Source: Cyanobacteria bacterium REEB446 (GTDB lineage: Bacteria; Cyanobacteriota; Vampirovibrionia; LMEP-6097). From it: a DNA stretch of 64,000 nucleotides. Positions 1-62,618 of this stretch are shown here, piece by piece (the stretch's first letter is position 1; the number at the start of each line of letters is the position of its first letter). Under the pieces are notes generated by a model, which was given only the letters and a program-made list of their open reading frames with translations, had not been told where the DNA came from and did not search any database. Where the stretch lies: the NCBI GenBank assembly GCA_018970325.1, contig JAGWWP010000003.1, forward strand, positions 15,737 to 79,736. Reading direction: 5' to 3'. Position numbers and translations under genes: made by a program.

Positions 1-55
1 TCGCGTGTCGCAAAGGACGACGAAAACGCAGAAATTGGAGTTCGGCTACAGTGCC
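1..55 (+). repeat. R1: core-containing element copy (GGCACTGTAGCC-type terminus), possibly cut by the window edge
   Basis: Exact core GAAAACGCAGAAATTGGAGTT at 23-43, followed by CGGCTACAGTGCC. Supplies the cobA stop codon. Confidence 0.85.
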
Positions 56-861
56 ATAATATGCTTGCCTAATACAAGTATACTTGGGCTAACAAAATTT
101 TCCTTTAAAGCTAGCTCTGGAATCTCTTTCACAGTTGAATATATAACTTTCTCTTTATCTAAAGTACCAGACTGTATGAGGATTGCAGGCATTAAATTTA
201 TTCGAGATAAATTCTCTTGTAAACCATTCATTAATAAACCTTCTCTAATCTGTGCAAGCTTATATAAACCCATATAAACTAGCAGGGTACCACCAGTCAT
301 TAAAAAAGCAGACCACGATTGAAACTTTTCATCACTTAGCTCATGTGCACTGACTATCATAACTGCATCACTTTTTTTCCTCAGAGTCAGAGGGATACCA
401 AGCGAGACTGGCACCGACAATCCACTTGTAAGACCAGGTACTATCTCCACCTGATATCCAGCATCTTTAGCTAACTGCATTTCCTCTACACCACGAGCAA
501 ATATAAAAGGATCTCCCCCTTTTAGACGTGCAACTTGCTTTCCCCGAGAGAGTTTCTCTAGAATCAAAGCATTAATATCATCTTGAGTTATATGCTTTTC
601 CGAACATTTTTTGCCGACATAAATCAGCTCAGTCTCTTTCTCTGATAGCCTTACTGTACATTTTTCAGTGATCTTAGATTGAAAAAAAACATTTCCAGAA
701 GCTTGCTTGAACAGATAATCTAAAATTTCAGTACTAACTAAATTATCGTAGAGAACTGTGTCCACTGCATTTAATAAGTTAATTGCTTTTAGCGTAAGTA
801 ACTCTGGGTCACCCGGCCCTGCACCGATAAGAAATAATTTTGCTCTTCTTTCTTCTGTCAT
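46..861 (-). CDS. cobA: uroporphyrinogen-III C-methyltransferase (SUMT)
   Basis: N-terminus LFLIGAGPGDPELLTLKA is typical of tetrapyrrole methylases. Last gene of the sir-cysH-sirC-cobA operon. Its TAG stop (46-48) lies inside repeat copy R1. Confidence 0.88.
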   Translation of the reverse strand: MTEERRAKLFLIGAGPGDPELLTLKAINLLNAVDTVLYDNLVSTEILDYLFKQASGNVFFQSKITEKCTVRLSEKETELIYVGKKCSEKHITQDDINALILEKLSRGKQVARLKGGDPFIFARGVEEMQLAKDAGYQVEIVPGLTSGLSVPVSLGIPLTLRKKSDAVMIVSAHELSDEKFQSWSAFLMTGGTLLVYMGLYKLAQIREGLLMNGLQENLSRINLMPAILIQSGTLDKEKVIYSTVKEIPELALKENFVSPSILVLGKHIMAL

Positions 862-5886: not shown

Positions 5887-5891
5887 TAGAG

Positions 5892-8765
5892 ATGAAGGGA
5901 TTTAATTTCGAGAAGAACCTAAGCCATCAATCACAGGCAGTTAAAAGCACAGTTAAGGTGTTTGAAAACATGCAAATAGAACAGGCTTCTGGAGTAAATC
6001 AAAACTATATTAATCCAGAGTTTGATTTCATGAGCAGCATGGAATACGCACGGAATATCGAACAAATTCAACAAAGTAACGGAATTACTGAAATATTGAG
6101 ATTTAACAGTAATATTCTCGACATAATGATGGAAACAGGTACAGGAAAGACTTACACTTATACCAAAACCATTTTTGAACTTAATAAACACTATGGCATT
6201 TTTAAATTTATTATAGTGGTCCCGACTCTTTCTATTAAAGCAGGAACGCTTGACTTTCTAAAATCAGCTAGTTGCAGAGAGCATTTCAGAGAACAATATA
6301 ACAAAACACTTAATCTGCACGTCGTTGAGAGTCAAAAAAATAATAAACGTAAAAAAAAAGCTTACATGCCCTCTGCTATAACGAATTTTGTACAAGCAGG
6401 TAGTTTCGAGAAAAATAGTATTCAGGTGATGCTTATTAATACAGGCATGATAAATTCCGAAACAATGCAAACAAGCTTTCACAAAAGCCTTTTGGACAAG
6501 CATACAGTCCCTTTTGATGCAATTAAGTCCACGCTGCCTTTTATAATTATTGATGAGCCTCATAAATTTGCGAAGGAGAATAAGACTTGGGCAAATATCA
6601 AAAAAATGCAAGCTCAGTTTATTCTGCGTTATGGAGCGACTTTCAATGGTTATGAAAATTTGGTCTATAACCTAACTGCAATTGATTCCTTTAATAAAAA
6701 CTTAGTGAAAGGTGTAATTGGGCACATAACTGAATTTGAGAATGGTAAAAACTCTATCGTAAAATTTATCGACTCAGACGGCACAGAAGCCAGCTTTGAA
6801 TTAACAGAAAACAATAAACATAAGACTATAAAACTTACTAAACAAGAAAGCCTTGCGAAAGTCCATCCAGAAATGACTAATTTAATAGTCGAGAATCTGA
6901 ATAAAAGTACAGTTGTCTTATCAAATGGTATTGAGATGAAGAAAGGGGATAAACTAAATCCATTTTCTTACGCTGAAACACTCCAAGAAACGATGATTAA
7001 AAAAGCCATCAAACATCATTTTGAAATAGAGAAGAAGCTACTTACTAGAGATGTAAAGGTAAAACCTATCACATTGTTCTTCATTGATAATATTGATGAA
7101 TACAGGAGTAAAGAAGGCTATATCAGAAAGACTCTCGAAGAGTGTATCAGGATTGAAATACAAGAGCTACTAAAAATAGAGGGTGATACTTTTTACAAAG
7201 CTTATCTAAAGAAGACTTTACTTGATCTACCTGGAACACACGCAGGTTATTTCTCTAAAGATAACCTAGAAAAAGATGAATCTATCGAGAAAGAGTTAAA
7301 CGAAATATTACATGATAAACAGGCCTTGCTTGATCTACAGAATATTAGGCGTTTTATTTTCTCGAAATGGACTCTACGTGAAGGATGGGACAATCCCAAT
7401 GTATTTCAGATTTGTAAGCTACGGAGCAGTGGAAGCGAAATATCTAAGCTACAAGAAGTTGGGCGTGGACTGCGTTTACCAGTAAATGAATACGGCAATC
7501 GTGTTAAGGACGAACAATTCTACCTAAATTATTTTGTAGATTTTACGGAAAGTGATTTCATAGATAAACTCGTAAACGAAATTAATCAAAAATCTGGAGC
7601 CATTTCGATTAACGAAGTCCCCGAAAAGCTTTCTGAGCCAATAATTAAGCGGATTTGTGAAGTTTATAAAACCTCTGAGGATAAGCTTTTAGAATTGCTT
7701 GACTCAAATAATGTAATCACACGCAGCAATTCATTCAAGACAAATGGCTTTGATTTTATTAAAGACAGATACCCATTGATTTTCAACGATATCAGCCCAA
7801 ATAAAATTATTAAAGCATCTGAGCCTAAAAAGAAAATCGCAGTAAGGGTCGAAAAGTATCAAGAGCTAAAAGATCTCTGGGAAAAATTAAATGAAAAAGT
7901 GATCTTGGAATACAAAATTGATCAGGAAGCCTGTTTCAAGAAACTTCTTACAGAGTTCTTAATAGAGCAGAAATATAGTTTTACATCTAGTGATGTCAGT
8001 ACAAGAATTTCAAAAGTTGAGATTATAGACGACAGAGCTATAACAGAATACTCCGAGTCAGTTTACGGCACAGAGACCATGTCAATTTCCACGATGAAGT
8101 ACAGTGATTTTCTCTTAGAACTAGCAAAAGCTTTAAGTATTAATATGAAGACATTGCATCAGGCATTCATTGATACCGATATAGATATAAACAGCTATTT
8201 AAGCCAAGGCACATTGCGGATCCTTAAAGAAAGATTTGATACTTATCTAATGGCGAATGCTATAGATAAGTTCAGCATAGAATATAAAAAAATCTCAAAT
8301 AGTATTCACCCAACCAAGCTTACAGACAGCTCTGGGAATGTGCTTAAAGAAATTTCTTCTTCTGATGTCGGTATTCAGTTTTCAGGAGAGGGAGTTGCTA
8401 AGAACTACCTACTTGAAGAACTCTACTATGACTCCGACTTAGAAAAAATAAATATAAAAACTGAGATACAGGAAGTAATTATATTTACCAAGATTCCAAA
8501 AAATTCAATTAAAATTCCTGTTGCTGGCGGTAGAACTTATTCCCCAGATTTCGCTTACGTACTGAGATTTAAAGATGGTCAGCAAAAATTACATTTTATT
8601 GTAGAAGCAAAAAATGTAACTAGTGAGAATGAGCTTAGAGAAGAAGAAAAATCAAAAATTAGACACGCCGAAAAGTTTTTTGGAGACAGTGTAAAAATTA
8701 AGTTTAAAACTCAATTTAGCAATGACAAAATAGCTGATCTAATTAAAAAGTGTTACATGGATTAA
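5892..8765 (+). CDS. res: Type III restriction enzyme Res subunit (SF2 helicase plus PD-(D/E)xK nuclease)
   Basis: Walker A METGTGKTYTY and DEAH-like IIIDEPHKF. C-terminal nuclease motif YSPDFAYV...FIVEAKN. Confidence 0.9.
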   Translation: MKGFNFEKNLSHQSQAVKSTVKVFENMQIEQASGVNQNYINPEFDFMSSMEYARNIEQIQQSNGITEILRFNSNILDIMMETGTGKTYTYTKTIFELNKHYGIFKFIIVVPTLSIKAGTLDFLKSASCREHFREQYNKTLNLHVVESQKNNKRKKKAYMPSAITNFVQAGSFEKNSIQVMLINTGMINSETMQTSFHKSLLDKHTVPFDAIKSTLPFIIIDEPHKFAKENKTWANIKKMQAQFILRYGATFNGYENLVYNLTAIDSFNKNLVKGVIGHITEFENGKNSIVKFIDSDGTEASFELTENNKHKTIKLTKQESLAKVHPEMTNLIVENLNKSTVVLSNGIEMKKGDKLNPFSYAETLQETMIKKAIKHHFEIEKKLLTRDVKVKPITLFFIDNIDEYRSKEGYIRKTLEECIRIEIQELLKIEGDTFYKAYLKKTLLDLPGTHAGYFSKDNLEKDESIEKELNEILHDKQALLDLQNIRRFIFSKWTLREGWDNPNVFQICKLRSSGSEISKLQEVGRGLRLPVNEYGNRVKDEQFYLNYFVDFTESDFIDKLVNEINQKSGAISINEVPEKLSEPIIKRICEVYKTSEDKLLELLDSNNVITRSNSFKTNGFDFIKDRYPLIFNDISPNKIIKASEPKKKIAVRVEKYQELKDLWEKLNEKVILEYKIDQEACFKKLLTEFLIEQKYSFTSSDVSTRISKVEIIDDRAITEYSESVYGTETMSISTMKYSDFLLELAKALSINMKTLHQAFIDTDIDINSYLSQGTLRILKERFDTYLMANAIDKFSIEYKKISNSIHPTKLTDSSGNVLKEISSSDVGIQFSGEGVAKNYLLEELYYDSDLEKINIKTEIQEVIIFTKIPKNSIKIPVAGGRTYSPDFAYVLRFKDGQQKLHFIVEAKNVTSENELREEEKSKIRHAEKFFGDSVKIKFKTQFSNDKIADLIKKCYMD

Positions 8766-10025
8766 ATATTTAACTATTTTCTCGGCAGCATCACCATTTC
8801 CATAGAATAAAGAATGGAGCTGCGGGCGAACTTCTGCTTGACTATTATTCATCAAGCGAGAGATAAGACTCTCTATTGCAAGTTTAATACTTTTAGAATC
8901 AGGACTTAGTCTCTCACTTAGACCCTGCTCTAAATATTCCTCTCTCTCTGCCTCCTCACGCATAACAAGAGTATATTTACTTAGATAAGCGGCTTCCTCC
9001 TGAACACCACCACTATCAGTAATTATAAAAAATGCATTCTGCATCAACTGTATAAACCCACAGTAAGTGACCGATTCCAGCAAATGAAGCCCTGAGATAT
9101 TCATAGATAATAGCTTTTCAGATAATTTTAAAAAATTCTCTCTTGCCTGCGGGTTAGTATGCAAACATACAACAAATTCGAGCATTTCTTGAGCATCTAG
9201 CGAAACTCCTATTTCCGCATTTGAGATTAACTCATTTTTAAAATTTCTTTCGCTTTTTTCTTTAAGAATTTGCAAAATACTCTTACAAAGTGCTTCCTGA
9301 AATCCATTATTAATATTCTCTCGTCTATGACTAGTGATTAAAATATATTTTTTATCTAGCTTAAATTCTTTCCTGGAACCCTGTTCAAGAATAGTAAAAT
9401 TTTTAAATTCAAAATCCTTACTATTAATTATGCTTTGAGCTTTAAAAAGAGCATCTATGCCTGTATTCCCAGTATTAAATATATTATGGGCGTGTAGCGA
9501 AACTCCAATTTCTGCGTTTTCATCGTCCTCATGATCACCGCTCCTCTTTTCTCGAATAAGTCTCTGATAGACCTTTTCACTAGGACAAAAATGATAATCC
9601 GCAATTTGACTAATAACACGCCGAGACAGTTCTTCTGGAAATGGGCTTCTGGGGTTAACTGTTCTTAAACCAGCTTCTACATGAGCGACTCTAATATGAT
9701 TATAAAAGGCTGCTAAAGCAGCCTGCACAGCACTTAGAGTATCTCCCTGCACTATAACTAAATCTGGTTTTTCTCTGCGAAACAAGAGATCTGCCTCAGT
9801 AAGAAGCTTTGCCGCTAACTCTGCAAGAGTATGTCCTTGATTCACTAGATTAAATTCATAATCTGGTCGTATACCCCAAAATTCCAGAAGATCACTGAGA
9901 ATGAGTTTATTGTGCTGGTTGGTGTGTATCCACTTAACTTCATGGCACTGCTTTTGAAACTCCAGATATACGGGTGCTAGTTTTATATATTCAGGTCTAG
10001 TACCGACTATAATAAAAATTTTCAT
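8739..10025 (-). CDS. wecB: UDP-N-acetylglucosamine 2-epimerase carrying two in-frame repeat insertions
   Basis: Matches MKIFIIVGTRPEYIKLAPV, VQGDT, HVEAGLRT and TDSGGVQEEA. Repeat-encoded DHEDDENAEIGVSLHA and SNAEIGVSLDA segments interrupt conserved blocks. Confidence 0.9.
   Translation of the reverse strand: MKIFIIVGTRPEYIKLAPVYLEFQKQCHEVKWIHTNQHNKLILSDLLEFWGIRPDYEFNLVNQGHTLAELAAKLLTEADLLFRREKPDLVIVQGDTLSAVQAALAAFYNHIRVAHVEAGLRTVNPRSPFPEELSRRVISQIADYHFCPSEKVYQRLIREKRSGDHEDDENAEIGVSLHAHNIFNTGNTGIDALFKAQSIINSKDFEFKNFTILEQGSRKEFKLDKKYILITSHRRENINNGFQEALCKSILQILKEKSERNFKNELISNAEIGVSLDAQEMLEFVVCLHTNPQARENFLKLSEKLLSMNISGLHLLESVTYCGFIQLMQNAFFIITDSGGVQEEAAYLSKYTLVMREEAEREEYLEQGLSERLSPDSKSIKLAIESLISRLMNNSQAEVRPQLHSLFYGNGDAAEKIVKYLIHVTLFN
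9191..9225 (-). repeat. R2: degenerate half-element inside wecB
   Basis: gagcatctagcgaaactcctatttccgcatttgag matches about 27 of 33 positions of the terminus-plus-core consensus. Encodes SNAEIGVSLDA. Confidence 0.7.
9488..9536 (-). repeat. R3: half-element (terminus, core, acidic arm) inside wecB
   Basis: gggcgtgtagcgaaactccaatttctgcgttttcatcgtcctcatgatc, with an exact core. Encodes DHEDDENAEIGVSLHA. Confidence 0.92.
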
Positions 10026-10056: not shown

Positions 10057-11292
10057 GTGGTTCAAGTTTCTTTAAATAAAATATCTAAAAAATATGATGA
10101 AAATTACATCATTAAAGACATCAGCCTAGAGTCTCAAGATAAAGAGTTTATAGTTTTAGTAGGACCTAGTGGTAGTGGTAAAAGTACGATTATTAGAATA
10201 ATTGCAGGATTAGAAGGTGATTTTGAAGGTGAATTAAAATTCGCTGGGGAAACCGTAAATGACTTAGCTGCAAAAGATCGTAAGCTCAGCATGGTTTTTC
10301 AGAATTATGCACTTTATCCTCATAAAACAGTTTTTGAGAATATCGCCTTCCCTTTAGTAATTAAATCTGAGCCTAAAAATCTAATTAAAGAAAAAGTACA
10401 TAAAGTAGCAGAGAAGCTTGATTTAATGAAATATCTAGAACGCAAACCTGGGCAGCTTTCTGGCGGGCAAAAGCAGAGGGTCGCCGTGGCGAGAGCGCTA
10501 ATTAAAGAACCGCAGCTTTTTTTAATGGATGAACCCTTAAGTAATCTTGATGCGAAGTTAAGAACCTCTACCAGGCAGGAAATACGTAAGCTTTATCAGG
10601 AATTAAACAGTACTTTTATCTATGTAACTCATGATCAAATCGAGGCTATGAGCCTTGGCGATAGAATCGCCATACTACATGAAGGTAAGATACAGCAGTT
10701 TGATACTCCATCCAAGATATATCATGAACCCGCAAACACTTTTGTTGCGAGCTTTATCGGCTCCCCCCCGACTAATTTACTCGAACCAAATTTAACTCTA
10801 TTTCAAGCTTTAAAAGAGGAACTGATCCCTAAACTCAATCGCGAAGATTTAATCATCGGTATTCGCCCAGAGTATTTATATTTAGCAGCAGAAATTGGAG
10901 ATTGCGAGCAGTCCCTTGAAGGGCGTGTAGCCGAACAAACAAGTTCAAGGCTGAGGAGGACGAATGACCGGAGTGTACTAGGTGTACACGAGGATCATGA
11001 GGACAACGAAAACGCAGAAAATGGAGTTCCGCTACACGCCCTTGAGGCAGAATTAGTTAATGTTGAGAACTTAGGTGAGGAGATTCTAGTTTACGCACGG
11101 CTAAATGAAAATTCAGGCAAGCTAAATGGTAGTGAATACTTGATAGCTAAAATTAATAATGCAGAGTATATCGAATTACTTCAAGAAAAATTCAGCTCCT
11201 TAAGTCCTGAAAGTCCAGTCAAATTACAGCTATTCTTTGATCCTAAAACGATTTACCTTTTTGATAAGCGATCTAGCATGCGAATCAGTTAG
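10057..11292 (+). CDS. ABC transporter ATP-binding protein (MalK/UgpC-like) with a roughly 50-aa repeat-derived insert
   Basis: GTG start. Walker A GPSGSGKST, signature LSGGQKQRV, Walker B LFLMDEPLSNLD. The insert sits in the C-terminal regulatory domain. Confidence 0.88.
   Translation: MVQVSLNKISKKYDENYIIKDISLESQDKEFIVLVGPSGSGKSTIIRIIAGLEGDFEGELKFAGETVNDLAAKDRKLSMVFQNYALYPHKTVFENIAFPLVIKSEPKNLIKEKVHKVAEKLDLMKYLERKPGQLSGGQKQRVAVARALIKEPQLFLMDEPLSNLDAKLRTSTRQEIRKLYQELNSTFIYVTHDQIEAMSLGDRIAILHEGKIQQFDTPSKIYHEPANTFVASFIGSPPTNLLEPNLTLFQALKEELIPKLNREDLIIGIRPEYLYLAAEIGDCEQSLEGRVAEQTSSRLRRTNDRSVLGVHEDHEDNENAENGVPLHALEAELVNVENLGEEILVYARLNENSGKLNGSEYLIAKINNAEYIELLQEKFSSLSPESPVKLQLFFDPKTIYLFDKRSSMRIS
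10888..10915 (+). repeat. R4a: solo half-element (core plus GGGACTGCTCGC-type terminus) in the ABC ATPase gene
   Basis: gcagaaattggagattgcgagcagtccc is identical in type to the right end of the purH copy. Confidence 0.8.
10921..11041 (+). mobile_element. R4b: full-length 121-bp palindromic element in the ABC ATPase gene
   Basis: 16-nt TIRs GGGCGTGTAGCCGAAC / GTTCCGCTACACGCCC (15 of 16). Flanked by TTGAA and TTGAG. Core has 1 mismatch. Confidence 0.92.
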
Positions 11293-12114: not shown

Positions 12115-12134
12115 GCGGTTATTCGTACTTTCCA

Positions 12135-12169
12135 AGCACCGCTGCATAACTCCATTCCCTGCATTTTTC
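12135..12169 (-). repeat. R17: possible decayed copy in the pxpA-like/crtB convergent spacer
   Basis: agcaccgctgcataactccattccctgcatttttc is about 70% identical to the terminus-plus-core consensus. Confidence 0.4.
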
Positions 12170-12178
12170 TCAGAATGC

Positions 12179-13009
12179 TTACTTATTCAGGAAAGATCCG
12201 AGCAAGACTAAGCTCTTTCCTACACTAGAAATTCTAATCCTTTTTTCGACTAGATGAAGAGCTGGCGTCTTTTTAATTTTATTAAACAATTTTAAATACA
12301 AAGAATAAGCAGCATAAACACCTAAACGCACACCTTGAGGGAGTTTTCTAATTCCGACAAGAGCGGCATCAAAATCCTTCTGAATGTCTGCTTCTAATTC
12401 TTTTTTCACTTCAGTACTAAAATTTTCTAAATCCAAATCGGGGAAATAAGTTCTACCCATGCCTTCATAATCAGCTTTTAAATCTCTTAAAAAATTTACT
12501 TTTTGAAAAGCTGATCCTAAGCTCATCGCAGGGCTTTTAAGCTCCTGATAGAGCTTGTCATCACCTTCACAGAATACTCTTAAACACATCAGCCCAACTA
12601 CTTCAGCTGAACCAAGTATATATTTTTTAAAGCTATTTGGGTCATATTCCTTTTTCTCTAAATCCATCGCCATGCTATCGAGAAAGCACTCTATGAGCTC
12701 ATTTTCTATAAAATACTTATTTACAGCCCATTGAAAACTGTTAAGGATTGGGTTTAAACTAACTTGACCCTGAATCGCTTTATATGTATCTGCTTTAAAC
12801 TCACTCAGTAAAGCAGCCTTATCATGCTCATGAAAAGTATCGACTATCTCATCAGCGAAACGCACGAAGCCATAAATGGCATAGATCGCAGCATGATATT
12901 TTCTGTCTAAAAGATAGATGCCAAGCGAAAAAGAACTGCTATAAGCATTAGTCGTAAGTTTACTGCATTTAAGACAGGTCTCATTATACAGAGCTAAATT
13001 AGTAGACAT
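12179..13009 (-). CDS. crtB: phytoene (or dehydrosqualene) synthase
   Basis: Squalene/phytoene synthase family: YSSSFSLGI, FVRFADEIVD, FLRDLKAD. Adjacent to crtI. Confidence 0.85.
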   Translation of the reverse strand: MSTNLALYNETCLKCSKLTTNAYSSSFSLGIYLLDRKYHAAIYAIYGFVRFADEIVDTFHEHDKAALLSEFKADTYKAIQGQVSLNPILNSFQWAVNKYFIENELIECFLDSMAMDLEKKEYDPNSFKKYILGSAEVVGLMCLRVFCEGDDKLYQELKSPAMSLGSAFQKVNFLRDLKADYEGMGRTYFPDLDLENFSTEVKKELEADIQKDFDAALVGIRKLPQGVRLGVYAAYSLYLKLFNKIKKTPALHLVEKRIRISSVGKSLVLLGSFLNK

Positions 13010-14568: not shown

Positions 14569-15012
14569 ATGAGAATTTTTATTTTTGTTTTTTTAAGCCT
14601 CTTCTTCTTTAGTTCACTATACTTTAATTATCCAGCTTATCAAGTTCAAGCTGAGCTTGATGATGAAGTAGATATAAATGACCTTAACTCAGATAAAAAA
14701 TATTATGAGTTAGTAAATAAAAGATTTAAACCAGATCAAGATGAGTTTTACTTAGACTCTATTTATTCTTTAGGTGATAATAACTGGGCAAGCATATCTC
14801 GTTCAAAAGAAATCAGAGCAAGTGATTTGCATAGAAATGGCTTGAGTTATACAGTGGGTAGCCCGCTTAATGATTATTTAGTAATCGAAGAAATTATACC
14901 CTCAAAAAAATCAGTTATTATCCGTGATATAAGGAATGAGAATTTTTTCCAACTGAGAATGAGTTATGGTTCTGCTAAGTCAAGATTAATTCCTTTCGTA
15001 AATAAGAATTAA
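14569..15012 (+). CDS. hypothetical secreted or membrane-anchored protein
   Basis: ORF with a hydrophobic N-terminus (IFIFVFLSLFFFSSL). No recognisable motif. Confidence 0.4.
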   Translation: MRIFIFVFLSLFFFSSLYFNYPAYQVQAELDDEVDINDLNSDKKYYELVNKRFKPDQDEFYLDSIYSLGDNNWASISRSKEIRASDLHRNGLSYTVGSPLNDYLVIEEIIPSKKSVIIRDIRNENFFQLRMSYGSAKSRLIPFVNKN

Positions 15013-16169: not shown

Positions 16170-16214
16170 AGCACTGTTGCCGAACTCCAATTTCTGCGTG
16201 TTCGTCGTCCTCAT
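16170..16214 (-). repeat. R5: half-element abutting the start codon of the PPC-repeat gene
   Basis: agcactgttgccgaactccaatttctgcgtgttcgtcgtcctcat, core with 1 mismatch. Creates an upstream in-frame ATG. Confidence 0.88.
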
Positions 16215-16250
16215 TTAAATTAAGTCTAGTGTATCAAAATTATAATTTTG

Positions 16251-30605: not shown

Positions 30606-31511
30606 TTATAGTATCTCAGATAATTCACTAAAATCATTAATGACCTTTCTAGTTCTCTCGATAGAATTATTACTAGACGCTGATTTATCAAGATTCTCAG
30701 TATCTTTCAAAGCCTCTCTTACGACTTGTACCGTTAGCAGCCCAGCTCGTTCACTTGCCCTACATTCATCTTTAATATCAGTCAAAAATAAAATATGCTC
30801 TGGACTTACTTTAATATCATCAGCGATTTTCAAATAAGATTCATATTCTTTCTTAGAACCTATCTTAGTATCATAGAAACCAGAAAATAAATAACGAATA
30901 TCACCGAATTCAGAAAATTCAAAAAACAATCTCTGAGCTTGAATAGACCCTGATGAATAGACATAGATCGGCAAGCCTTTGCCTTTCATATTTAAGAAAA
31001 AATCAAGGGCATCTTGGTATAAAGGTGCCTTAAATAAACCTTTCCTAAAACCTTCTTGCCAGATTAATCCCTGTAAATCTTTTAGGGGGGTGATTTTTTT
31101 ATCTTCCAGACTCCAAGTTTTTAAAGCCTGAATAGCAGTATATACCTGTGTTTCAAAAACAGCATCTTGGGCGTGTAGCGAAACTCCAATTTCCGCGTTT
31201 TCGTCGTCCTCATGATCCTCATGTACATTGAGTACACTGCGGTCATTCGTCCTCCTCGGTCTTGAACTTGTTCGTTTGGCTACACGCCCATCTAAGTGCG
31301 ACAAAACTCCAATTTCTGCGTTTTCGCCCCTTTTGTTTTGCTTAAGCTCTTCTAAAGTAGCCTCAATAATAGAGAGTAAGACTGGATCATGCTCAAAGTT
31401 AGTTAATATAAAATCTTCTATTCTCTCGCTTGCATAAGGGAAAAGAACATCTTTAACAAAACTAATTGAACTAATAGTTCCTTCGATATCGGTAAGTATG
31501 GCTTTAGGCAT
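30606..31511 (-). CDS. mtnC: enolase-phosphatase E1 (methionine salvage) with a roughly 55-aa repeat-derived insert
   Basis: HAD motif AILTDIEGT. Operon with mtnD and mtnB. Contains one full 121-bp element plus an adjacent half-element. Confidence 0.85.
   Translation of the reverse strand: MPKAILTDIEGTISSISFVKDVLFPYASERIEDFILTNFEHDPVLLSIIEATLEELKQNKRGENAEIGVLSHLDGRVAKRTSSRPRRTNDRSVLNVHEDHEDDENAEIGVSLHAQDAVFETQVYTAIQALKTWSLEDKKITPLKDLQGLIWQEGFRKGLFKAPLYQDALDFFLNMKGKGLPIYVYSSGSIQAQRLFFEFSEFGDIRYLFSGFYDTKIGSKKEYESYLKIADDIKVSPEHILFLTDIKDECRASERAGLLTVQVVREALKDTENLDKSASSNNSIERTRKVINDFSELSEIL
31169..31289 (-). mobile_element. R6a: full-length 121-bp element inside mtnC
   Basis: TIRs GGGCGTGTAGCGAAAC / GTTTGGCTACACGCCC. 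Flanked by ATCTT and ATCTA. Encodes GRVAKRTSSRPRRTNDRSVLNVHEDHEDDENAEIGVSLHA. Confidence 0.93.
31296..31330 (-). repeat. R6b: half-element 6 nt from R6a inside mtnC
   Basis: gtgcgacaaaactccaatttctgcgttttcgcccc, with an exact core. Encodes GENAEIGVLSH. Confidence 0.88.
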
Positions 31512-32076: not shown

Positions 32077-32795
32077 ACTTCTACAACCTCTTCCTTGCCC
32101 TGCATAACTTTATTTAATTGCATCTCAAGTAAATAGGATTCAATTAAAGTATTCAAAGCATCTACGTGTCTAATCGTTTCACTCTGAGTGCTTCCCCAAG
32201 TATAAAGACCATGTCCCGCTAATAGATAAGCATGTAAAGGTTTTTCTGAATTAGCAAGCTTCTCAAGAACTGGCTGAATTAAATCAGCTAGTTCTTCTAT
32301 GTTTTGGTTATTAGGGAAGATCGGTAAAATTTCCGTATAATCATGAGTCAGAACACCCGAAAGAGCCTTTAAAAGCTCAAATCCCTCTAGTTTAAGTGCC
32401 TTAATTCCTTGCTTTAAAAGAACTTTAGATAGAACGGCACTAGATGATGAATGAAAGTGGGCTATAAACTTAGCGTTAGGGAAAGTTCTATATACCTGAG
32501 TATGCAAAAGAGTTTCAGCCGATGGTTTTAGAGACGGCGGCACAACTCCATTTTCTGCGTTTTCATCGTCCTCTTTTAAATTAGAAGCTTTAGCTCTACC
32601 GAGAAAATCCACTAGCATTAAATCCCCTTCTGTTAAAGTCGCTTTATCTTTACCAGAGACACTGATTAAAATTTCTTGATTTTCTAGGCGAGCAGAAAAA
32701 TTACCAGAAGTCGCTGGTACTAAGCCTTTTACTGCACAGAAATGAGCGACTTTAATTAGATCTTGTTTTATTGAGTCGAGATTAAGCACATTCAT
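32073..32795 (-). CDS. mtnB: methylthioribulose-1-phosphate dehydratase (class II aldolase/adducin fold) with a short repeat insert
   Basis: Aldolase_II family: PATSGNFS, HFHS, GHGLYTWG. Operon context. EDDENAENGV insert. Confidence 0.85.
   Translation of the reverse strand: MNVLNLDSIKQDLIKVAHFCAVKGLVPATSGNFSARLENQEILISVSGKDKATLTEGDLMLVDFLGRAKASNLKEDDENAENGVVPPSLKPSAETLLHTQVYRTFPNAKFIAHFHSSSSAVLSKVLLKQGIKALKLEGFELLKALSGVLTHDYTEILPIFPNNQNIEELADLIQPVLEKLANSEKPLHAYLLAGHGLYTWGSTQSETIRHVDALNTLIESYLLEMQLNKVMQGKEEVVEV
32536..32573 (-). repeat. R7: half-element inside mtnB
   Basis: ggcggcacaactccattttctgcgttttcatcgtcctc, core with 1 mismatch. Encodes EDDENAENGVVPP. Confidence 0.88.
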
Positions 32796-35062: not shown

Positions 35063-35110
35063 GGGCACTATTGCTGAACTCCAATTTCTGCGTTTTTGGC
35101 AATAGTGCCT
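35063..35110 (-). repeat. R8: short hairpin form (stem-core-stem) in the trmFO / AAA-ATPase divergent spacer
   Basis: Perfect 11-bp stem GGCACTATTGC / GCAATAGTGCC encloses the core (1 mismatch). Confidence 0.9.
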
Positions 35111-43399: not shown

Positions 43400-45094
43400 A
43401 TGAAAAAAAAGGCTTTAATTTCTGTTTTCGATAAATCTAAGTTAGAAGAACTTTTAGAAGTTCTTGATACTGAATATGATTTTATCAGTAGCTCTGGCAC
43501 AGCGACTTTCATTAAAAATGCTGGTTATAAGGTAACTGAGGTTCAGGATCTTAGTAATTTCCCCGAAATACTTTCAGGCAGGGTGAAAACATTACATCCG
43601 AAGATTTTTGGAGCCATTCTTTATGACAGAAATAATCACCAGCACTTAGAAGAAATAGAAAAAGAGAATATAGTATCTATAGACCTTGTTATCGTTAATC
43701 TTTATCCTTTCGCAGAAGTTACCAAAAACCTTTCATTGAGTGGCACTGACTTAAATGGGACTGTAGCCAAACGAACAAGTTCAAGGCTGAGGAGGACGGA
43801 GGATCATGAGGACGACGAAAACGCAGAAATTGAAGATTGCGAGCAGTCCTATGCTGATTTAGATATAGCTATAGAAAATATAGATATAGGCGGACCAAGC
43901 CTTTTAAGAGCAGCTTCTAAAAATTTCAGGCACGTTATTACACTGTCTAATCCTGATCAATACGATGCTTTTACTGAGAGATATAAAAGTAAATCTCTAG
44001 ATCTAAATTACAGAAAACAGCTAGCTGCTGAGACTTTCAGAATGACCAGCGCCTATGATGCTGTAATAGAAAGATTTCTAGCTCAAGCTAATGCTGATTC
44101 GTTTAAGACTAATGCTGAAATTGACTTGACGGCAGAGAATTTATTACCAGAAAAGCTTACTTTAAATTTAGAAAGAGTTAAAACCTTAAGCTATGGTGAA
44201 AACCCTCATCAGCAGGCTGGTCTTTATGTAGAATCTAATTCAAAATATAGAGGGCTTGCTGATGCAAATAAACTACATGGAAAGGATCTAAGTTTTAATA
44301 ATTTACTTGATCTTTCTGCTGCCTATAACATCGTCCAAGAATATGGTCCAGAGATTCCTTGTGCCGTTATCGTTAAACACAATAATCCTTGCGGTGTCGC
44401 TATAGCTCCAAATATCACTTTAGCCTTTATAGAAGCCCTTGCAGCAGATTCTGTAAGCGCATTTGGTGGAGTGGTAGCTTTAAATAATCCCGTAGACATA
44501 GCTCTAGCAAATGAATTAAGTCAAATTTTCCTAGAAGCAGTTATAGCTCCGAGCTTCACCCCTGAAGCCTTTGCGATACTTACCCAGAAGAAAAATATCA
44601 GATTAATAGAGCATCCTAATTTTAAAAATTCTCAAAATCTTTTAGATATTAAAAAAATTGATGGTGGTTTCCTTATACAAACAGCTAATCATCAGCTTAT
44701 AGACCAGACTTTATTAAAAACCGTTACTAAGACGAGCATAGACGAAAGCCTGTGGGTGGATCTCATACTAGCTTTAAAAGTGGTTAAGCACGTTAAATCT
44801 AATGCTATAGTGACGACTCAAGGCGGCAGGACACTGGGAATCGGTGTAGGTCAGACGAATAGAGTGAAGTCAGTAGAAGATGCTCTGCGTAATTTTGATT
44901 TAGATACTAGGGGAGCAGTTATGGCTTCTGATGGTTTTTTCCCATTTGCTGATAATATACACCTTGCTGCCCAAAACCATATAGCTGCGATTATTCAACC
45001 AGGTGGTTCTATTCGTGATGAAGAAGTTATTAAAGCCTGTGACGAATTAGGGATTGCGATGGCGTTTACACATATAAGGCATTTTAAGCATTAA
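43400..45094 (+). CDS. purH: bifunctional AICAR formyltransferase / IMP cyclohydrolase with a 31-33 aa repeat insert
   Basis: MGS-like N-terminus (ALISVFDKS, RVKTLHP) and AICARFT domain. Insert VAKRTSSRLRRTEDHEDDENAEIEDCEQS. Confidence 0.93.
   Translation: MKKKALISVFDKSKLEELLEVLDTEYDFISSSGTATFIKNAGYKVTEVQDLSNFPEILSGRVKTLHPKIFGAILYDRNNHQHLEEIEKENIVSIDLVIVNLYPFAEVTKNLSLSGTDLNGTVAKRTSSRLRRTEDHEDDENAEIEDCEQSYADLDIAIENIDIGGPSLLRAASKNFRHVITLSNPDQYDAFTERYKSKSLDLNYRKQLAAETFRMTSAYDAVIERFLAQANADSFKTNAEIDLTAENLLPEKLTLNLERVKTLSYGENPHQQAGLYVESNSKYRGLADANKLHGKDLSFNNLLDLSAAYNIVQEYGPEIPCAVIVKHNNPCGVAIAPNITLAFIEALAADSVSAFGGVVALNNPVDIALANELSQIFLEAVIAPSFTPEAFAILTQKKNIRLIEHPNFKNSQNLLDIKKIDGGFLIQTANHQLIDQTLLKTVTKTSIDESLWVDLILALKVVKHVKSNAIVTTQGGRTLGIGVGQTNRVKSVEDALRNFDLDTRGAVMASDGFFPFADNIHLAAQNHIAAIIQPGGSIRDEEVIKACDELGIAMAFTHIRHFKH
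43757..43850 (+). mobile_element. R9: 94-bp internally deleted element inside purH
   Basis: Left arm gggactgtagccaaacgaacaagttcaaggctgaggaggacgga joins directly to ggatcatgaggacgacgaaaacgcagaaattgaagattgcgagcagtcc. It lacks the central palindrome. Confidence 0.9.
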
Positions 45095-45132
45095 GGACGT
45101 GTAGCGAAACTCTAATTGCTGCGTTTTCGCCC
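45095..45132 (-). repeat. R10: half-element filling the purH/prfB convergent spacer
   Basis: ggacgtgtagcgaaactctaattgctgcgttttcgccc, core with 2 mismatches. Starts 1 nt after the purH stop and ends 3 nt before the prfB stop. Confidence 0.85.
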
Positions 45133-45135
45133 GCC

Positions 45136-46267
45136 TTATGACCCTGTTTTAAACTTTAAAAACTCTCTAATAAATTCATCTAAAACTTCCGTACCGTTAA
45201 TTACAGCATCAACATCACGGGTCTCATACTTAGTTCTGTGATCCTTAACTCTTCCTTCGTCAAAGACATAGGAGCGAATAGCATTTCCCCAAGAAGCATT
45301 CAAAACTTCTCCTTTAAGCTCAGCGAGCTTCTTCTGCTCTTCCTCTTCCTGTAAGGCTAGCAGCTTAGATTTAATCTGTTCTATAGCTCTATCTTTATTT
45401 TGAGCTTGGCTGCGCTCTTGAGTACATTTCACAGCAAACCCAGTAGGTATGTGCCTTACCCTAACAGCTGTCTCGACTTTATTTACATTCTGTCCGCCCG
45501 CTCCACCAGAGCGCATAGTAGTAATTTCCAAATCAGATTCTTTAAAACCTTTTAGTTCAGTAGAACTATCTATTACAGGACAGACTTCAATCCCCGCAAA
45601 ACTGGTCTGCCTGCTATCAGCAGAAGATTTAAATGGAGATTTGCGCACTAGCCTGTGAACGCCTTTCTCCGCTGAAAGATAACCATAGGCATAAGGACCA
45701 GAAATTTTTAAAGATGCTGATTTAATCCCAGCTTCCTCGCCATCAGATTTATCTAAAAGCTCTACTGTAAAGCCTTTCGTTATCTCCGCCCAGCGTGTAT
45801 ACATTCTTAAAAGAATCTCTGCCCAATCCTGAGCATCAGTACCACCAGCTCCAGCATTGATATTTATAATCGCAGATGATTTATCATAATCCCCAGACAT
45901 CATCAGGAGAAACTCATAGTCCTCTAATTCTGTTAATAATTTAAAATATTCTTCGCGAATTAATTCATCTAGATCCTGCTTTTCGAATTCTTCCTCTGTC
46001 TCAGCTAGCATCTCCTGCATAGCTAAAAAATCTTCTAGACGCCTTGCCCAAGAGTCTATTTTATCTATCTGCTCTTTTTTAAAACTAATCTCTTTGGATA
46101 TAGCTTGAGCCTCGCTGACATTATTCCAAAAGCCCTCGACTAAGGTCTTCTCCTCTAAAATCTTTAATTCTTCTTTGAGCTCATTAAGGTCAAAGACACT
46201 CCTTGATTGAATTATATTTACTAGAAATTATCTCGGAATCTATAGCTGTTTGAAGATATTCTGGCAT
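45136..46267 (-). CDS. prfB: peptide chain release factor 2 (requires a programmed +1 frameshift)
   Basis: SPF and GGQ motifs. A 25-codon upstream frame ([25 protein letters not shown]) ends at CTT TGA C. The +1 frame then continues DLNELKEEL... into the long ORF. Confidence 0.9.
46189..46204 (-). promoter_or_regulatory. prfB +1 programmed frameshift site
   Basis: On the minus strand: AAGGAG (SD-like), TGT, then CTT TGA C. Same architecture as the classical RF2 autoregulatory site. Confidence 0.85.
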
Positions 46268-46304
46268 AGAGGGCTTATTTTAGCAGGAAAAGTTTATGTA
46301 CGTT

Positions 46305-46349
46305 GGGACTGCTCGCAAACCTGCAATTTCTGCATTTTTGAGCAGTCCC
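46305..46349 (-). repeat. R11: short hairpin form upstream of prfB
   Basis: Perfect 10-bp stem GGGACTGCTC / GAGCAGTCCC around a diverged core (cctgcaatttctgcattttt). Flanked by ACGTT and ATGTT. Confidence 0.85.
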
Positions 46350-47726: not shown

Positions 47727-47734
47727 TTATCAAT

Positions 47735-53722: not shown

Positions 53723-54976
53723 ATGCAAGCTTTAGCGAAGGAAACTATTCCCATTCACTGGAATCATGAAAACAGGTCTGTATCTATCATCGACCAAACT
53801 CTTCTACCTTATGAATTAAAGTGGGTAGAAATAAAGACTTATGAGGCGATGGCAAATGCTATTGAGAATATGCTTCTACGTGGAGCACCTTTAATCGGCA
53901 TCGCTGCTGCATATGGCATGGTACTTGCTTTACAGGAATTTATAGAGACTAACGCTCGTTATCACAGTTTAGAAAAAGATCATGAAAACAATGAAAATAT
54001 AAAAAATGCTGCTCTGAACCAGTCTTTAGAAGATAGATTAATTAATTTTCTAAACCAAGCCTCAAATAGACTACTTTCGACACGCCCGACTGCGGTAAAT
54101 CTAGCTTGGGCATTAGGAGAAATGGCAGCCACTATTCAAAAAAATCACAAAGATGAAGCTCTGCAATCGTCACTTGAGCAAAATACTTACTTGCAAAAAC
54201 TACACCAAATACTTTTAAATAAAGCTCTCTGGATTCAAGAAGATGATTATAATCGCTGCAAAGCAATGTCTGAACATGCTTTAGCTTTAGTAAAAAAGGA
54301 TTTTGCTGAAAAAATTAAAACACAAGGTGATAAGGTGGTTGAACAAACAGGTAAATTAAATGTTCTCACTCACTGTAATGCTGGCGCCTTAGCTACTGGC
54401 GGCTATGGCACTGCTTTAGGCTTAATCAGAAGTTTACATCGCGAAGGCTTACTTAATATGGTTTATTCTGACGAAACTCGCCCTCGCCAGCAGGGTTCTC
54501 GCCTCACCGCTTGGGAATTAGCACAGGAAGGCATTCCAGTCACTATGATCTGCGATACTATGGCAGGTTTTATGATGAATAAAGGAATGATAGACCTAGT
54601 AGTAGTAGGTAGTGATCGCATTACTGCAAATGGTGATGTCGCTAATAAAATAGGTACTTACCAAGTAGCGATTCTTGCAAAACATCACCAAATACCTTTC
54701 TATGTCCTAGCCCCAGAAAGCACTATAGATTTAAATTTAAAGACTGGCCATGAAATCGAGATAGAATATCGAAACACAGAAGAGGTTAGCCACATAAATG
54801 GCAAAGCCTGCACTTTTATTAAGAGGAACGACGAAAACGCAGAAATTGGAGTTCGAGAACAGTGCCGAGACTTAAATTCCGTTACTGAGGTGATGTTCCT
54901 TAACCCTGGCTTCGACGTCACTCCAAATTCATTAATTAGTGGAATAATTACAGAAAATGGCATAATCGGTATGTAG
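53723..54976 (+). CDS. mtnA: S-methyl-5-thioribose-1-phosphate isomerase
   Basis: IF-2B family blocks: RGAPLIGI, THCNAGALAT, VGSDRITANGDVANKIGT. Carries an in-frame half-element (NDENAEIGVREQC). Its TAG stop is supplied by full-length element R13. Confidence 0.9.
   Translation: MQALAKETIPIHWNHENRSVSIIDQTLLPYELKWVEIKTYEAMANAIENMLLRGAPLIGIAAAYGMVLALQEFIETNARYHSLEKDHENNENIKNAALNQSLEDRLINFLNQASNRLLSTRPTAVNLAWALGEMAATIQKNHKDEALQSSLEQNTYLQKLHQILLNKALWIQEDDYNRCKAMSEHALALVKKDFAEKIKTQGDKVVEQTGKLNVLTHCNAGALATGGYGTALGLIRSLHREGLLNMVYSDETRPRQQGSRLTAWELAQEGIPVTMICDTMAGFMMNKGMIDLVVVGSDRITANGDVANKIGTYQVAILAKHHQIPFYVLAPESTIDLNLKTGHEIEIEYRNTEEVSHINGKACTFIKRNDENAEIGVREQCRDLNSVTEVMFLNPGFDVTPNSLISGIITENGIIGM
54823..54866 (+). 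repeat. R12: half-element inside mtnA
   Basis: gaggaacgacgaaaacgcagaaattggagttcgagaacagtgcc, with an exact core. Encodes RNDENAEIGVREQC. Confidence 0.9.
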
Positions 54977-55087
54977 CCGAACGAACAAGTTCAAGGCTGA
55001 GGAGGACGAATGACCGCATTGCACCAAGCGTACATGAAGATCATGAGGACGACGAAAACGCAAAAATTGGAGTTCCGCTACACGCCC
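54967..55087 (+). mobile_element. R13: full-length 121-bp element at the 3' end of mtnA
   Basis: Flanked by a perfect 5-bp direct repeat ATAAT (54962-54966 and 55088-55092). The right TIR is intact and the left TIR is mutated (CGGTATGTAGCC). Its peptide frame is still open. Confidence 0.92.
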
Positions 55088-55117: not shown

Positions 55118-56101
55118 ATGAAAGTAGAACTTTTGACTGAAGAAAAAACCAAACTACCTATATTTCCAGATATTACTATCGAAACGAAAGCACAGATTAC
55201 AGGTACTTTAGAAAAAGTTGGGATGGAGAAAGTTGAACTTGCTCTTAAGCTTCAATCTAGTAAAGGAGAAATCACTCAAATTCCAGCTTTCGCAAACCTT
55301 TATGTCAGCCTAGATGCTCCTCATAAGAAAGGGATACATATGTCTAGGCTCTTATTACAAGCACATAAGACTTTTGATGAAGAGGCTTTAAGCTATGAAT
55401 CTCTTGGGGATTTAGTTAAGAAATTAAAAGAATCTCATGCAGATATGAGTTTAAATGCTTTTGTTGAAATCGAGTTTGATTATATGTTACGCAGACCAGC
55501 TCTAGTGAGCGATAACGATGCTTGGAGATCTTACCCAGTGGTTTTAAAAGCTGAGATAAACCATGTAGATGAAATATCCTTCACGACCAGCATTCGAATA
55601 ACCTACTCTAGTACCTGCCCTTGCTCGGCAGCACTATCAAGACAGCTTATACAAGAAGAGTTTTTAAAAACATTTGGGGATAAAGCTCCTAGTGTTACAG
55701 ATATATATAACTGGTTAGGTAAAGAAGAAAGCCAAGTAGCTACTCCTCATAGTCAAAGAAGCTATGCTGATGTAGATTTTCTGCATACTGGAGAGTCTAA
55801 ACTTAGTGGGACTGCTCGCAAACGTAAAAGTTCAAGCGAATCCCTCAATCTAGATGAGATGATAGATGGTCTAGAAAAGGCTATCTCTACACCGGTACAA
55901 GCAGCTGTCAAAAGAGAAGATGAACAAGAGTTCGCTAGGCTTAATGGCAGAAACTTTATGTTTAGTGAAGATGCTGCAAGAAGATTAAAGTTTTTCTGTG
56001 AGAGCCTAGAATACCTTTCAGATTTTAGTATTAAAGTACAGCATTTAGAGAGTCTTCATGCACATAATGCCGTAGCCTTTGCGAGAAAATCATCTAGCTG
56101 A
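55118..56101 (+). CDS. folE2: GTP cyclohydrolase FolE2/MptA family
   Basis: GIHMSRL, STCPCS, PHSQRS and ESLHAHNAVA blocks. Contains a degenerate left-arm repeat fragment. Confidence 0.85.
   Translation: MKVELLTEEKTKLPIFPDITIETKAQITGTLEKVGMEKVELALKLQSSKGEITQIPAFANLYVSLDAPHKKGIHMSRLLLQAHKTFDEEALSYESLGDLVKKLKESHADMSLNAFVEIEFDYMLRRPALVSDNDAWRSYPVVLKAEINHVDEISFTTSIRITYSSTCPCSAALSRQLIQEEFLKTFGDKAPSVTDIYNWLGKEESQVATPHSQRSYADVDFLHTGESKLSGTARKRKSSSESLNLDEMIDGLEKAISTPVQAAVKREDEQEFARLNGRNFMFSEDAARRLKFFCESLEYLSDFSIKVQHLESLHAHNAVAFARKSSS
55808..55843 (+). repeat. R14: left-arm fragment inside folE2
   Basis: gggactgctcgcaaacgtaaaagttcaagcgaatcc versus the purH left arm gggactgtagccaaacgaacaagttcaaggctgagg. 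Encodes GTARKRKSSSES. Confidence 0.6.
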
Positions 56102-61220: not shown

Positions 61221-62618
61221 TTAACTTCTATGGACTAAATCGCCCCCCACATAAACCTCTTTAACTCTAGTCTTCTCTGCATCTAAAATTAAAGCATAAG
61301 GATCTACAGAATCCAAATCTAAATTGTCATCCATCACCTCAAAAACCACGTAATCAGCATACTTAGAGTCTTCTAGGCTGCCGATCTTATCATCCATGCC
61401 TATAGCTTTAGCAGCAGAGCTAGTTAATAATTCATACTGCCGCTGAACTCCAATTCCTGCGTTTCCCGCACTCCCTACGTTCTCAACAAGCAGTTTTAAC
61501 TCTGATCTTAAATCTAAATCATAATTAGAAGCTTTACTATCAGTTCCCAAGCCGTAATTCACACCATGAGACTGCTCCCAAAGAGGAATTTTCGCCATAT
61601 TATGCTTTAAAAACTGATTACTGCGGGGGCAACTAACTAAAGAAATCTCAGGGTGATTAACAAGCTCTTGAATCTCATTCTCTGAGAGATTTATAGCATG
61701 AGTTAATAAATATTTAAGAGACCGCGAGCATGCTCCATTCCCTGCACTAAGTACGTATTTCTTAAAATAATCCCAAGATGACTCAGCCTGTTTTCTATAT
61801 CTTTTCTTCAAATCCAAGACTCCAAGTGATTCCCAGAAATCATAAAGTAACTCTAATTCTTTATCTTCATTTATTAATAAACCTTCCATATCATCGGGCG
61901 TAAGATGATACTTCTGCAAAGCTCTATCTCCAGTATTGTGATTACGCTCAAAATCTACACCTCTAAAATACTTCTCCTCTAACTCATCTTCTGCGAAGTG
62001 CATTAATAAAAGAGGCAATATGTGAGACGCAGAAGAATCTTTAGCTAGAAATACCTGTATCTCTTCGAGTAATTCGCTAGAAACACTGTATAAAGAATGT
62101 GGTGAAAAAGCGAACTGAATTTTATGGCTCTGTATCATCAGCCTTAATTCTTCTACCGCCTTATTTAAAATACTTTTAGCTTGTTGTGGATCAGAACCGA
62201 AGAGCTCAAGTCCAATAATTCCTCTTAAACCAGTTTGCTGAAAAGCTTTTACGCTTGCATCTAAGTGTGAAGTATTATCTACTAAAAATGTTGTACCTGT
62301 ACTAAGTGCAAGTCTTGCTCCAGCTAGGCTTGCACTTACTGGATCGAAAGATTCATTTTGAACTTTATGCATTAAATCTTTTAACCAAGCAAAAAGATTT
62401 TTAGGCTTTAAATCTAAATGCGTATATGCAAGATGTGAGTGTAAATTTATAAATCCTGGTGAAATTATCTGTTTTTTGGCTAGGTTATCTGGTGTATTTA
62501 TTTCAGATAAGGCTGATACATTAGCTATATAACCATTTTCTGAGTTGATTTTAGCGTTTTTGACTAGTTCTTTTGAGTTCCTGATTATTATATTCTGGGT
62601 ATATTGATCTAGTACCAT
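61221..62618 (-). CDS. amidohydrolase-superfamily protein (deaminase/chlorohydrolase-like)
   Basis: Metal-binding HxH (FINLHSHLAY) and a C-terminal D motif region. Carries a degenerate repeat copy (GSAGNAGIGVQRQ). Confidence 0.7.
   Translation of the reverse strand: MVLDQYTQNIIIRNSKELVKNAKINSENGYIANVSALSEINTPDNLAKKQIISPGFINLHSHLAYTHLDLKPKNLFAWLKDLMHKVQNESFDPVSASLAGARLALSTGTTFLVDNTSHLDASVKAFQQTGLRGIIGLELFGSDPQQAKSILNKAVEELRLMIQSHKIQFAFSPHSLYSVSSELLEEIQVFLAKDSSASHILPLLLMHFAEDELEEKYFRGVDFERNHNTGDRALQKYHLTPDDMEGLLINEDKELELLYDFWESLGVLDLKKRYRKQAESSWDYFKKYVLSAGNGACSRSLKYLLTHAINLSENEIQELVNHPEISLVSCPRSNQFLKHNMAKIPLWEQSHGVNYGLGTDSKASNYDLDLRSELKLLVENVGSAGNAGIGVQRQYELLTSSAAKAIGMDDKIGSLEDSKYADYVVFEVMDDNLDLDSVDPYALILDAEKTRVKEVYVGGDLVHRS
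61436..61475 (-). repeat. R15: degenerate half-element inside the amidohydrolase gene
   Basis: catactgccgctgaactccaattcctgcgtttcccgcactc, core with 2 mismatches. Encodes GSAGNAGIGVQRQ. Confidence 0.75.

Follow-up and report, generated by a model that had tools for sequence, protein, structure and literature searches.

The 64,000-nt stretch of DNA analysed here (the window; contig JAGWWP010000003.1 of Cyanobacteria bacterium REEB446, forward-strand positions 15,737 to 79,736; G+C content 36%) contains a MalK-type ABC ATPase gene, mtnA, mtnB, mtnC, purH, wecB, folE2 and an amidohydrolase gene, and a short repeated element of 121 nt is found both within and between its genes (Table 1). The proteins encoded in the window place the host in the Vampirovibrionia (Melainabacteria), which are flagellated, do not photosynthesise and form a sister group of cyanobacteria. 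One full copy of the element lies in the ABC ATPase (copy 1), a second in MtnC (copy 2), and a third at the end of mtnA (copy 3). A 94-nt variant is inserted in PurH, and remnants are embedded in WecB (twice), MtnB, MtnA, FolE2 and the amidohydrolase. The unit ends in inverted arms of 16 nt, with an imperfect continuation up to about 26 nt, and has a nearly invariant interior with a 6-bp hairpin. The three full copies align with one another without any indel, and nhmmer gives them E-values of about 1e-39. An earlier note on this DNA had counted three complete copies of 121 bp with 16-nt inverted repeats, matching at 15 of 16 positions in two copies and mutated on the left in copy 3, and had listed the pentamers beside the three copies and beside a short hairpin form at 46305-46349. 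Recounting returned the same lengths, the same pentamers and the same matches, copy 3 having 12 of 16 matching positions with the mutations in its left end.

Table 1. Copies, variants and remnants of the 121-nt element in the window; the last two rows give features from other genomes.
Feature	Position	Strand	Details
Copy 1, full 121 nt	10921..11041	+	A-type arms GGGCGTGTAGCCGAAC / GTTCCGCTACACGCCC
Copy 1 host, MalK-type ABC ATPase gene	10057-11292		in-frame; encoded peptide GRVAEQTSSRLRRTNDRSVLGVHEDHEDNENAENGVPLHA
Copy 1 flanking duplication	left 10916..10920, right 11042-11046	+	TTGAA / TTGAG
Older right-end remnant, B-type terminus	10888..10915	+	GCAGAAATTGGAGATTGCGAGCAGTCCC; one pentamer upstream of copy 1
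Copy 2, full 121 nt	31169..31289	-	in-frame in mtnC (30606-31511, minus strand)
Copy 2 flanking duplication	31164-31168, 31290-31294	+	ATCTT / ATCTA, as read on the + strand
Older right-end remnant	31295..31330	-	ENAEIGVLSHL; adjoins copy 2, upstream in gene orientation
Copy 3, full 121 nt	54967..55087	+	left arm mutated, CGGTATGTAGCC
Copy 3 flanking duplication	54962-54966, 55088-55092		ATAAT / ATAAT
94-nt variant without inner hairpin (27 nt)	43757..43850	+	arms GGGACTGTAGCC / GCGAGCAGTCCT; in-frame in purH (43400-45094)
45-nt hairpin form, intergenic	46305..46349	-	arms GGGACTGCTC.. / ..GAGCAGTCCC, core AAATGCAGAAATTGCAG; flanks ACGTT/ATGTT
46-nt hairpin form, intergenic	35064..35109	-	arms GGCACTATTGC
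Right-half remnant	9488..9538	-	in-frame in wecB; DHEDDENAEIGVSLHA
Second wecB remnant, more eroded	9190..9239	-	NAEIGVSLDA
Remnant	32539..32574	-	in-frame in mtnB; EDDENAENGV
Remnant	54815..54866	+	in-frame in mtnA; NDENAEIGVREQC; 24 nt longer in relative L112
45-nt right-half remnant	16171..16215	-	5' end of ORF 15009-16214; not in relative L115
Right-half remnant	45095..45154	-	intergenic, where purH and prfB converge
Short form or right-half remnant	14..60	+	window edge
Left-end remnant	55807..55833	+	in-frame in folE2; GGGACTGCTCGCAAACGTAAAAGTTC
Remnant	61434..61465	-	in-frame in amidohydrolase gene (61221-62618)
81-nt loop insert	L117 10960-11040; L117 ~9324-9431; mtnC alleles P0250/P0251		adds 27 aa in-frame
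Gemmataceae repeat loci	high-G+C loci among L001-L111, e.g. L001 3432-3541		same pattern scan, ~70 loci

The element is not restricted to this contig. A scan of one genome per species with the pattern GGCGTGTAGC-N(84-114)-GCTACACGCC gave 37 low-G+C loci from five metagenome-assembled genomes (MAGs) of Vampirovibrionia, Caenarcaniphilales or Melainabacteria (one is mislabelled as Proteobacteria). With a profile made from the window copies, 41 full copies at 32 distinct sites were counted in these five MAGs (about 423 kb of related DNA) and the window, besides many remnants. The length is 121 nt at 30 of the 32 sites, the exceptions being 126 and 130 nt. Allelic length variants are 122 nt at intergenic sites, and there is one 112-nt variant in a gene. 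The variants within genes (94 and 112 nt) add up to multiples of 3 together with the target-site duplication (TSD), and those of 122 nt are intergenic. At L058 6731-6856, a 126-nt copy without clear duplication splits lgt into two open reading frames (ORFs); the cause is an error of assembly or else a frameshift or pseudogene.

Flanking pentamers were scored at 38 sites, after addition of copies with other arm types. The two 5-nt flanks match at all five positions at 17 sites, at four positions at 13, and at three or fewer at 8, and a perfect 6-nt flanking repeat occurs at none of the 38. On average 4.0 of the 5 positions match, whereas permuted flanks give about 2.1 and shifted registers 0.9-1.7. 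The target consensus is an AT-rich palindrome, Y|ATNAT|R, and such a palindromic target with a 5-bp duplication is in keeping with staggered cutting, 5 bp apart, by a symmetric enzyme. Since the element is 121 nt long and the TSD 5 bp, each insertion amounts to 126 nt, or 42 codons.

The clearest empty site was found in mtnC. MtnC orthologs range from 247 to 383 aa, and proteins of 299 aa (P0244, P0246) differ from those of 257 aa (P0252, P0262 and others) by one 42-residue block at the same point. The occupied allele L118 reads ...AATCAAG ATGAT, then the 121 nt (TGCACTGTTGCCGAAC...GTTCCGCAACAGTGCA), then ATGAT GCTATTTTT, whereas the empty alleles L119 and L120 read ...AATCA(T/A)G AGGAT GCTATTTTT with a single pentamer, the alignment gap being exactly 126 nt (42 aa). 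Copy 2 of the window has other arms and occupies the same pentamer (TAGAT ... AAGAT|GCTGTTTTT). Another candidate for an empty site is provided by L053, where ATAAT is present once, versus L045 and L037, with ATGAT on both sides. For copy 3, a metagenome scan with MtnA gave two loci only; L112 was informative on the decay series and provided no clean empty site, an old remnant being present there. The 367-aa allele of the ABC ATPase in L114 was considered as an empty site for copy 1 and rejected, as it retains an A-type terminus and is a recombination product of tandem copies. The reading of the different pentamers as TSDs, put forward in the earlier note, is thus upheld by the 38-site scoring and by the mtnC site. 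That note had named a broad length distribution, the lack of a consistent 5-bp duplication, and empty sites without a pentamer difference as contrary to its view. What was found is a distribution centred on 121 nt (30 of 32 sites), a duplication matching at four or more of five positions at 30 of 38 sites, and an empty ortholog 126 nt shorter with one pentamer.

How the element sits in genes depends on strand and phase. On either strand, frame 0 is the sole frame in which the consensus is open. The forward peptide, GRVAKRTSSRLRRTNDRSVLGVHEDHEDDENAEIGVSLHA, is hydrophilic (grand average of hydropathy, GRAVY, -1.08; 38% charged), and the reverse one, GRVAKLQFLRFRRPHDPHVHLVHCGHSSSSALNLFVWLHA, has a GRAVY of -0.10. 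Frame 1 of either strand runs into a TAG within the arm (G GGC GTG TAG), and frame 2 into a stop after 14 codons. Among the 32 sites, 16-18 lie inside long ORFs, all in forward frame 0, and the reverse open frame is used inside a gene at none. At six sites, window copy 3 among them, the arm TAG terminates a gene: the stop codon of mtnA (53723-54976) is the TAG in the left arm of copy 3, and the last MtnA residues are replaced. About eight of the 32 are intergenic, with both orientations seen. Divisibility by 3 is therefore necessary and insufficient for persistence in genes, because four of the six insertion modes bring stops and a single combination of orientation and phase survives there. 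The arithmetic of 126 nt and 42 codons behind the earlier claim that every insertion into a gene preserves the frame is upheld.

An exhaustive search with the peptide yielded 82 cluster representatives, whose hosts include RadA, WecB, Sua5, a chorismate-binding enzyme (PabB-like) and Dam methylase. In a word-indexed peptide search, which returned short spurious ORFs only and so is not a census, all lineage-informative source names were Melainabacteria, Vampirovibrionia or Cyanobacteria, and two further sources were generic or mislabelled MAGs. An exact-protein look-up of a host gene returned no match.

Many copies are not solitary. To the left of about half of the A-type copies, and separated from them by exactly one pentamer, there is an older right-end remnant of like orientation; for example, the remnant upstream of copy 1 and copy 1 itself make up a tandem array with a period of 126 nt. 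The simplest reading of such pairs is re-use of the duplicated pentamer, because this pentamer, being located in a tolerant loop, is also still a fit to the target consensus. The presence of two arm types at one mtnC pentamer supports such recurrent targeting. A model of a circular intermediate or of homologous integration was rejected for these pairs, since under it the variable terminus should be on the other side.

Arrays also change in length after insertion. The ABC ATPase forms an allele series of 367, 372, 378/380, 409/411, 415-423 and 436/450 aa, and the window and L114 (367 aa) versions are set apart by exactly 126 nt, located between two GCAGAAATTGGAG repeats; because the A-type terminus is kept in L114, this allele is a contraction. 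The mtnC array has a contraction of 258 aa, an allele of 301 aa and an expansion of 383 aa with three units. In this last allele (P0237), the three tandem units are 41 aa each, and the array was produced either by unequal recombination that expanded it or by an artefact of assembly due to the repeats. The wecB remnant at 9488-9538 of the window is a 108-nt deletion derivative, as L117 keeps a longer copy there, and relative L112 retains only the last 30 nt of the purH variant. Deletion endpoints cluster at GATCATGAGGAC, which is similar to the target and TSD (ATGAT), and this suggests that deletions arise via microhomology between the left TSD and the interior. As for half-sized forms, window 16100-16330 and L115 15860-16080 carry two different half-elements of about 45 nt, one per lineage, with 45 nt between the two sites. 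For each of them the site is cleanly empty in the other lineage and the junctions show short microhomologies, and they are either de novo half-insertions or full insertions followed by deletion. At 12115-12191, between a LamB/YcsF-family gene and a squalene/phytoene synthase gene, a 77-nt segment of the window includes an element remnant. L115 and L117 do not have the segment, and the synthase is 279 aa there versus 276 aa in the window.

The account that we consider quite probable is that of a trans-mobilised unit like the miniature transposable elements with inverted repeats (MITEs), able to persist in genes as a 42-residue loop owing to its 126-nt footprint and its single hydrophilic frame. 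It has in common with MITEs its terminal inverted repeats, a TSD of fixed length with an empty site, small size, multiple copies and open frames of only 40 codons. The family would be non-autonomous and limited to one clade of Vampirovibrionia from fresh water. A putative enzyme, supplied in trans, would make the 5-bp staggered cut at the AT-rich palindromic target, so that each insertion would add 126 nt and 42 codons. Insertions in the right orientation and phase within tolerant protein loops may be kept as extra loops, as the open frame of one strand would give a charged, hydrophilic 40-residue peptide. Those in frame +1 of either strand would meet the arm TAG and would be lost except at the 3' ends of genes, for which they provide the stop, and the rest would be purged or remain intergenic. 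A duplicated pentamer in a tolerant place would again be a good target, so that later copies may land one pentamer from older ones and build arrays of 126-nt period. By unequal recombination and microhomology deletions, these arrays could then grow, contract and erode in multiples of 3 nt, down to remnants of the 'NAEIGVSLHA' type. Divisibility by 3 may be an adaptation ('tuning') and is consistent with the mostly coding landing space of a compact genome, although for a single family the prior chance that length and TSD add up to a multiple of 3 is already 1/3.

Several observations weigh against this account. No transposase family is represented among the window's 53 ORFs of at least 130 aa, and a search for an autonomous partner, as inverted 11-mers 0.5-4 kb apart in the roughly 423 kb of related genome fragments, found pairs of element copies only. 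At 8 of the 38 sites there is no clear TSD. The interior is more conserved than the tips, which is the reverse of a classical MITE, and the two arms of each copy co-vary, which is unexpected for a DDE transposase that reads end sequence. The insert is presumed to be translated and tolerated by the host protein, and presumed to lie on its surface. The AlphaFold2 model of the ABC ATPase is too poor for placing the insert (mean pLDDT, predicted local distance difference test, 46), and a sequence search of the PDB aligned its nucleotide-binding domain alone. One candidate partner pair, in L058, was rejected because it encloses fliI, a sugar transferase gene and lgt with no transposase. Viral contigs scanned with the invariant core gave no matches, and no Rfam family matched in the window.

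The co-varying arms lead to the best surviving alternative, namely that the element is mobile and that its recognition rests on the hairpin into which it folds as single-stranded DNA (or RNA), not on its end sequence, through a mechanism that is new or like that of REPINs (hairpin-forming doublets of repetitive extragenic palindromic, REP, sequences), with a 5-bp cut. Other 121-nt copies are 93-100% identical in the interior and have very different tips (e.g., GGCACTGTTGCG, GGGACTGCTCGC, GGGACACTTGTC and CAGACTGCTGTC), and for every variant tip the partner arm is complementary and the TSD again 5 bp. At least eight arm types share one interior, length and TSD, and several occur within one 8-kb locus. 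Across 39 copies, two-sided changes are seen in 13 of the 16 pairs of the terminal stem and 95% of cells are paired, a level reached by none of 500 shuffles and lost when the register is slid. In the inner hairpin, pair 56/66 is U-A in 26 copies and C-G in 12, the 5-nt loop is hypervariable, and the DNA single strand folds better than its shuffles do (z = -3.5). Compensatory change in hairpins is a hallmark of REPINs (PMC3116915). However, systems of the HUH type, with a REP-associated tyrosine transposase (RAYT), are extragenic and leave no TSD, and the fixed 5-bp TSD seen here, together with a palindromic target, is what DDE chemistry typically gives. Neither a Y1-transposase match nor a RAYT or other candidate enzyme is present in the window. 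The covariation could also stem from arm-to-arm conversion or recombination among copies, and all four combinations of arm and hairpin variants do occur. We thus hold recognition by shape to be an improbable alternative. The same low standing is given to a combined proposal, in which REPIN-like structural recognition would be joined to DDE-like integration, and the near-invariant interior, divisibility by 3, hydrophilic frame and arm stops would be adaptations of selfish DNA to the genes of a compact genome. As a separate observation on the hairpin, relatives have, at no fewer than three sites, a structured insert of 81 nt (GGGTAATTTCTAGCGATGCCGAGAATGCGAGCCATGTAAATGGCTC...) within the loop of the element's inner hairpin.

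It could further be proposed that the repeats are kept for a benefit to the host, as flexible linker or loop modules of proteins or as mRNA hairpins acting as terminators or stabilisers, and that selection, not selfish spread, made them abundant. The use of one peptide frame in every gene, the remnants kept in many orthologs across lineages 5-15% apart at the protein level, and the stop codons supplied by some copies between convergent genes would all suit this idea. We nevertheless regard it as very unlikely, for presence and absence are polymorphic between close relatives, the copies erode fast by deletions of many sizes, the host proteins are unrelated with insertion points in variable loops, and intergenic copies have both orientations, so that a single shared function is indicated by none of these observations. 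That the module did not transpose at all, and was spread by homologous recombination, gene conversion or tandem duplication with pentamers due to chance or microhomology, would explain some 126-nt differences made by recombination between tandem copies (window vs. L114) and the microhomology at the half-element junctions, but it is disfavoured to the point of being scarcely credible by 38 unrelated sites with different pentamers and a duplication of exactly 5 nt, by the palindromic target consensus, by sharp boundaries at the inverted ends, by a clean empty site with a single pentamer, and by the lack of homology among the flanks of the sites.

Judged by described behaviour, and returning to the MITE-like reading, the closest known system appears to be the Rickettsia palindromic elements (RPEs), which were reportedly described by Ogata et al. 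in 2000. RPEs are palindromic, about 100-150 nt long with terminal inverted repeats and many copies; close to half of them lie in-frame in unrelated conserved protein genes, which thereby gain a conserved peptide; a transposase that goes with them is not known, and their target duplication is listed as unknown (PMC10969869; PMC2229807). The 121-nt element shares with them size, palindromy, in-frame genic insertion of a conserved peptide and having no known transposase. The hosts, in contrast, belong to an unrelated phylum, and the likeness drawn here is one of behaviour. The 121-nt element also differs in its strict 5-bp TSD, target consensus, empty site and explicit 42-codon arithmetic, in arms that co-vary among subfamilies, and in an arm TAG re-used as a stop codon.

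Open frames fused in-frame within genes are likewise known for ERIC (enterobacterial repetitive intergenic consensus)/RU-1 elements (127 bp) and the 107-bp Correia form, which duplicate TA and are mainly intergenic (PMC2229807). These share with the 121-nt element terminal inverted repeats, target duplication, a long stem-loop and a contiguous open frame, whereas the latter has a 5-bp duplication, is about half genic and may occur as several copies or tandem arrays per gene. [quoted passage not shown] TIMEs resemble the 121-nt element in being non-autonomous, in the AT-rich 5-bp duplication and in tips starting with G runs. The latter has 16-nt variable arms, dozens of copies, several of them per 8-kb locus, and copies one pentamer apart, and so has neither the 38-bp repeats nor the low copy number of TIMEs, and its tandem copies argue against Tn3-type immunity. 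The hint towards the Tn3 family given in the earlier note is for these reasons not borne out. REPINs, in which REP doublets form hairpins marked by compensatory change and singlets are read as decayed units, are extragenic, do not duplicate their target and have a RAYT gene linked to them (PMC3116915). They share with the 121-nt element a mobile hairpin-forming unit of about 100 nt whose sides are kept paired by compensatory changes, and differ from it in that it has a 5-bp TSD, is about half genic and has no RAYT in the window.

In light of these systems, the remark in the earlier note that its author had not seen such length tuning described for bacterial MITEs makes too strong a claim of novelty, because RPEs, ERIC/RU-1 and the 107-bp Correia form were already known in-frame in genes. 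New here are the host phylum, the explicit combination of TSD, target consensus and empty site, the co-varying arms and the array dynamics. No literature pairing Melainabacteria with MITEs was found. The pattern scan also picked up, in Gemmataceae (Urbifossiella, Gemmata), more than 70 copies of a GC-rich palindromic repeat of about 109 nt, whose arms start with GGCGTGTAGCC preceded by CGTC. These repeats were set aside as unrelated, being GC-rich with a different interior, and the shared 10-mer is probably a coincidence.

The family would thus be a phylogenetically distant counterpart to RPEs, and a second, cleaner case of selfish DNA in genes. Its 42-codon arithmetic can be read directly because, unlike in RPEs, the TSD, target consensus and empty sites are defined. 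It explains length variation of housekeeping proteins among close relatives (ABC ATPase 367-450, MtnC 247-383, WecB 428-466 aa), which matters, in metagenomes, for how genes are called, orthologs clustered and structures predicted. The co-varying arms make recognition by sequence or by shape directly testable for small bacterial repeats.

Two further regions of the window differ from syntenic relatives. At 3894-8844, between a sulfite reductase gene and wecB, lies a type III restriction-modification pair (Mod 3997-5886 and Res 5892-8765), which looks like a recent island since it is missing in the syntenic relatives L114 and L117 and free of element copies. The region at about 46286-48376 does not align with syntenic L112 and encodes Eco57I-like methylase fragments (46962-47723) and a protein with a GmrSD N-terminal domain (47735-48226), and is thus a variable defence islet.

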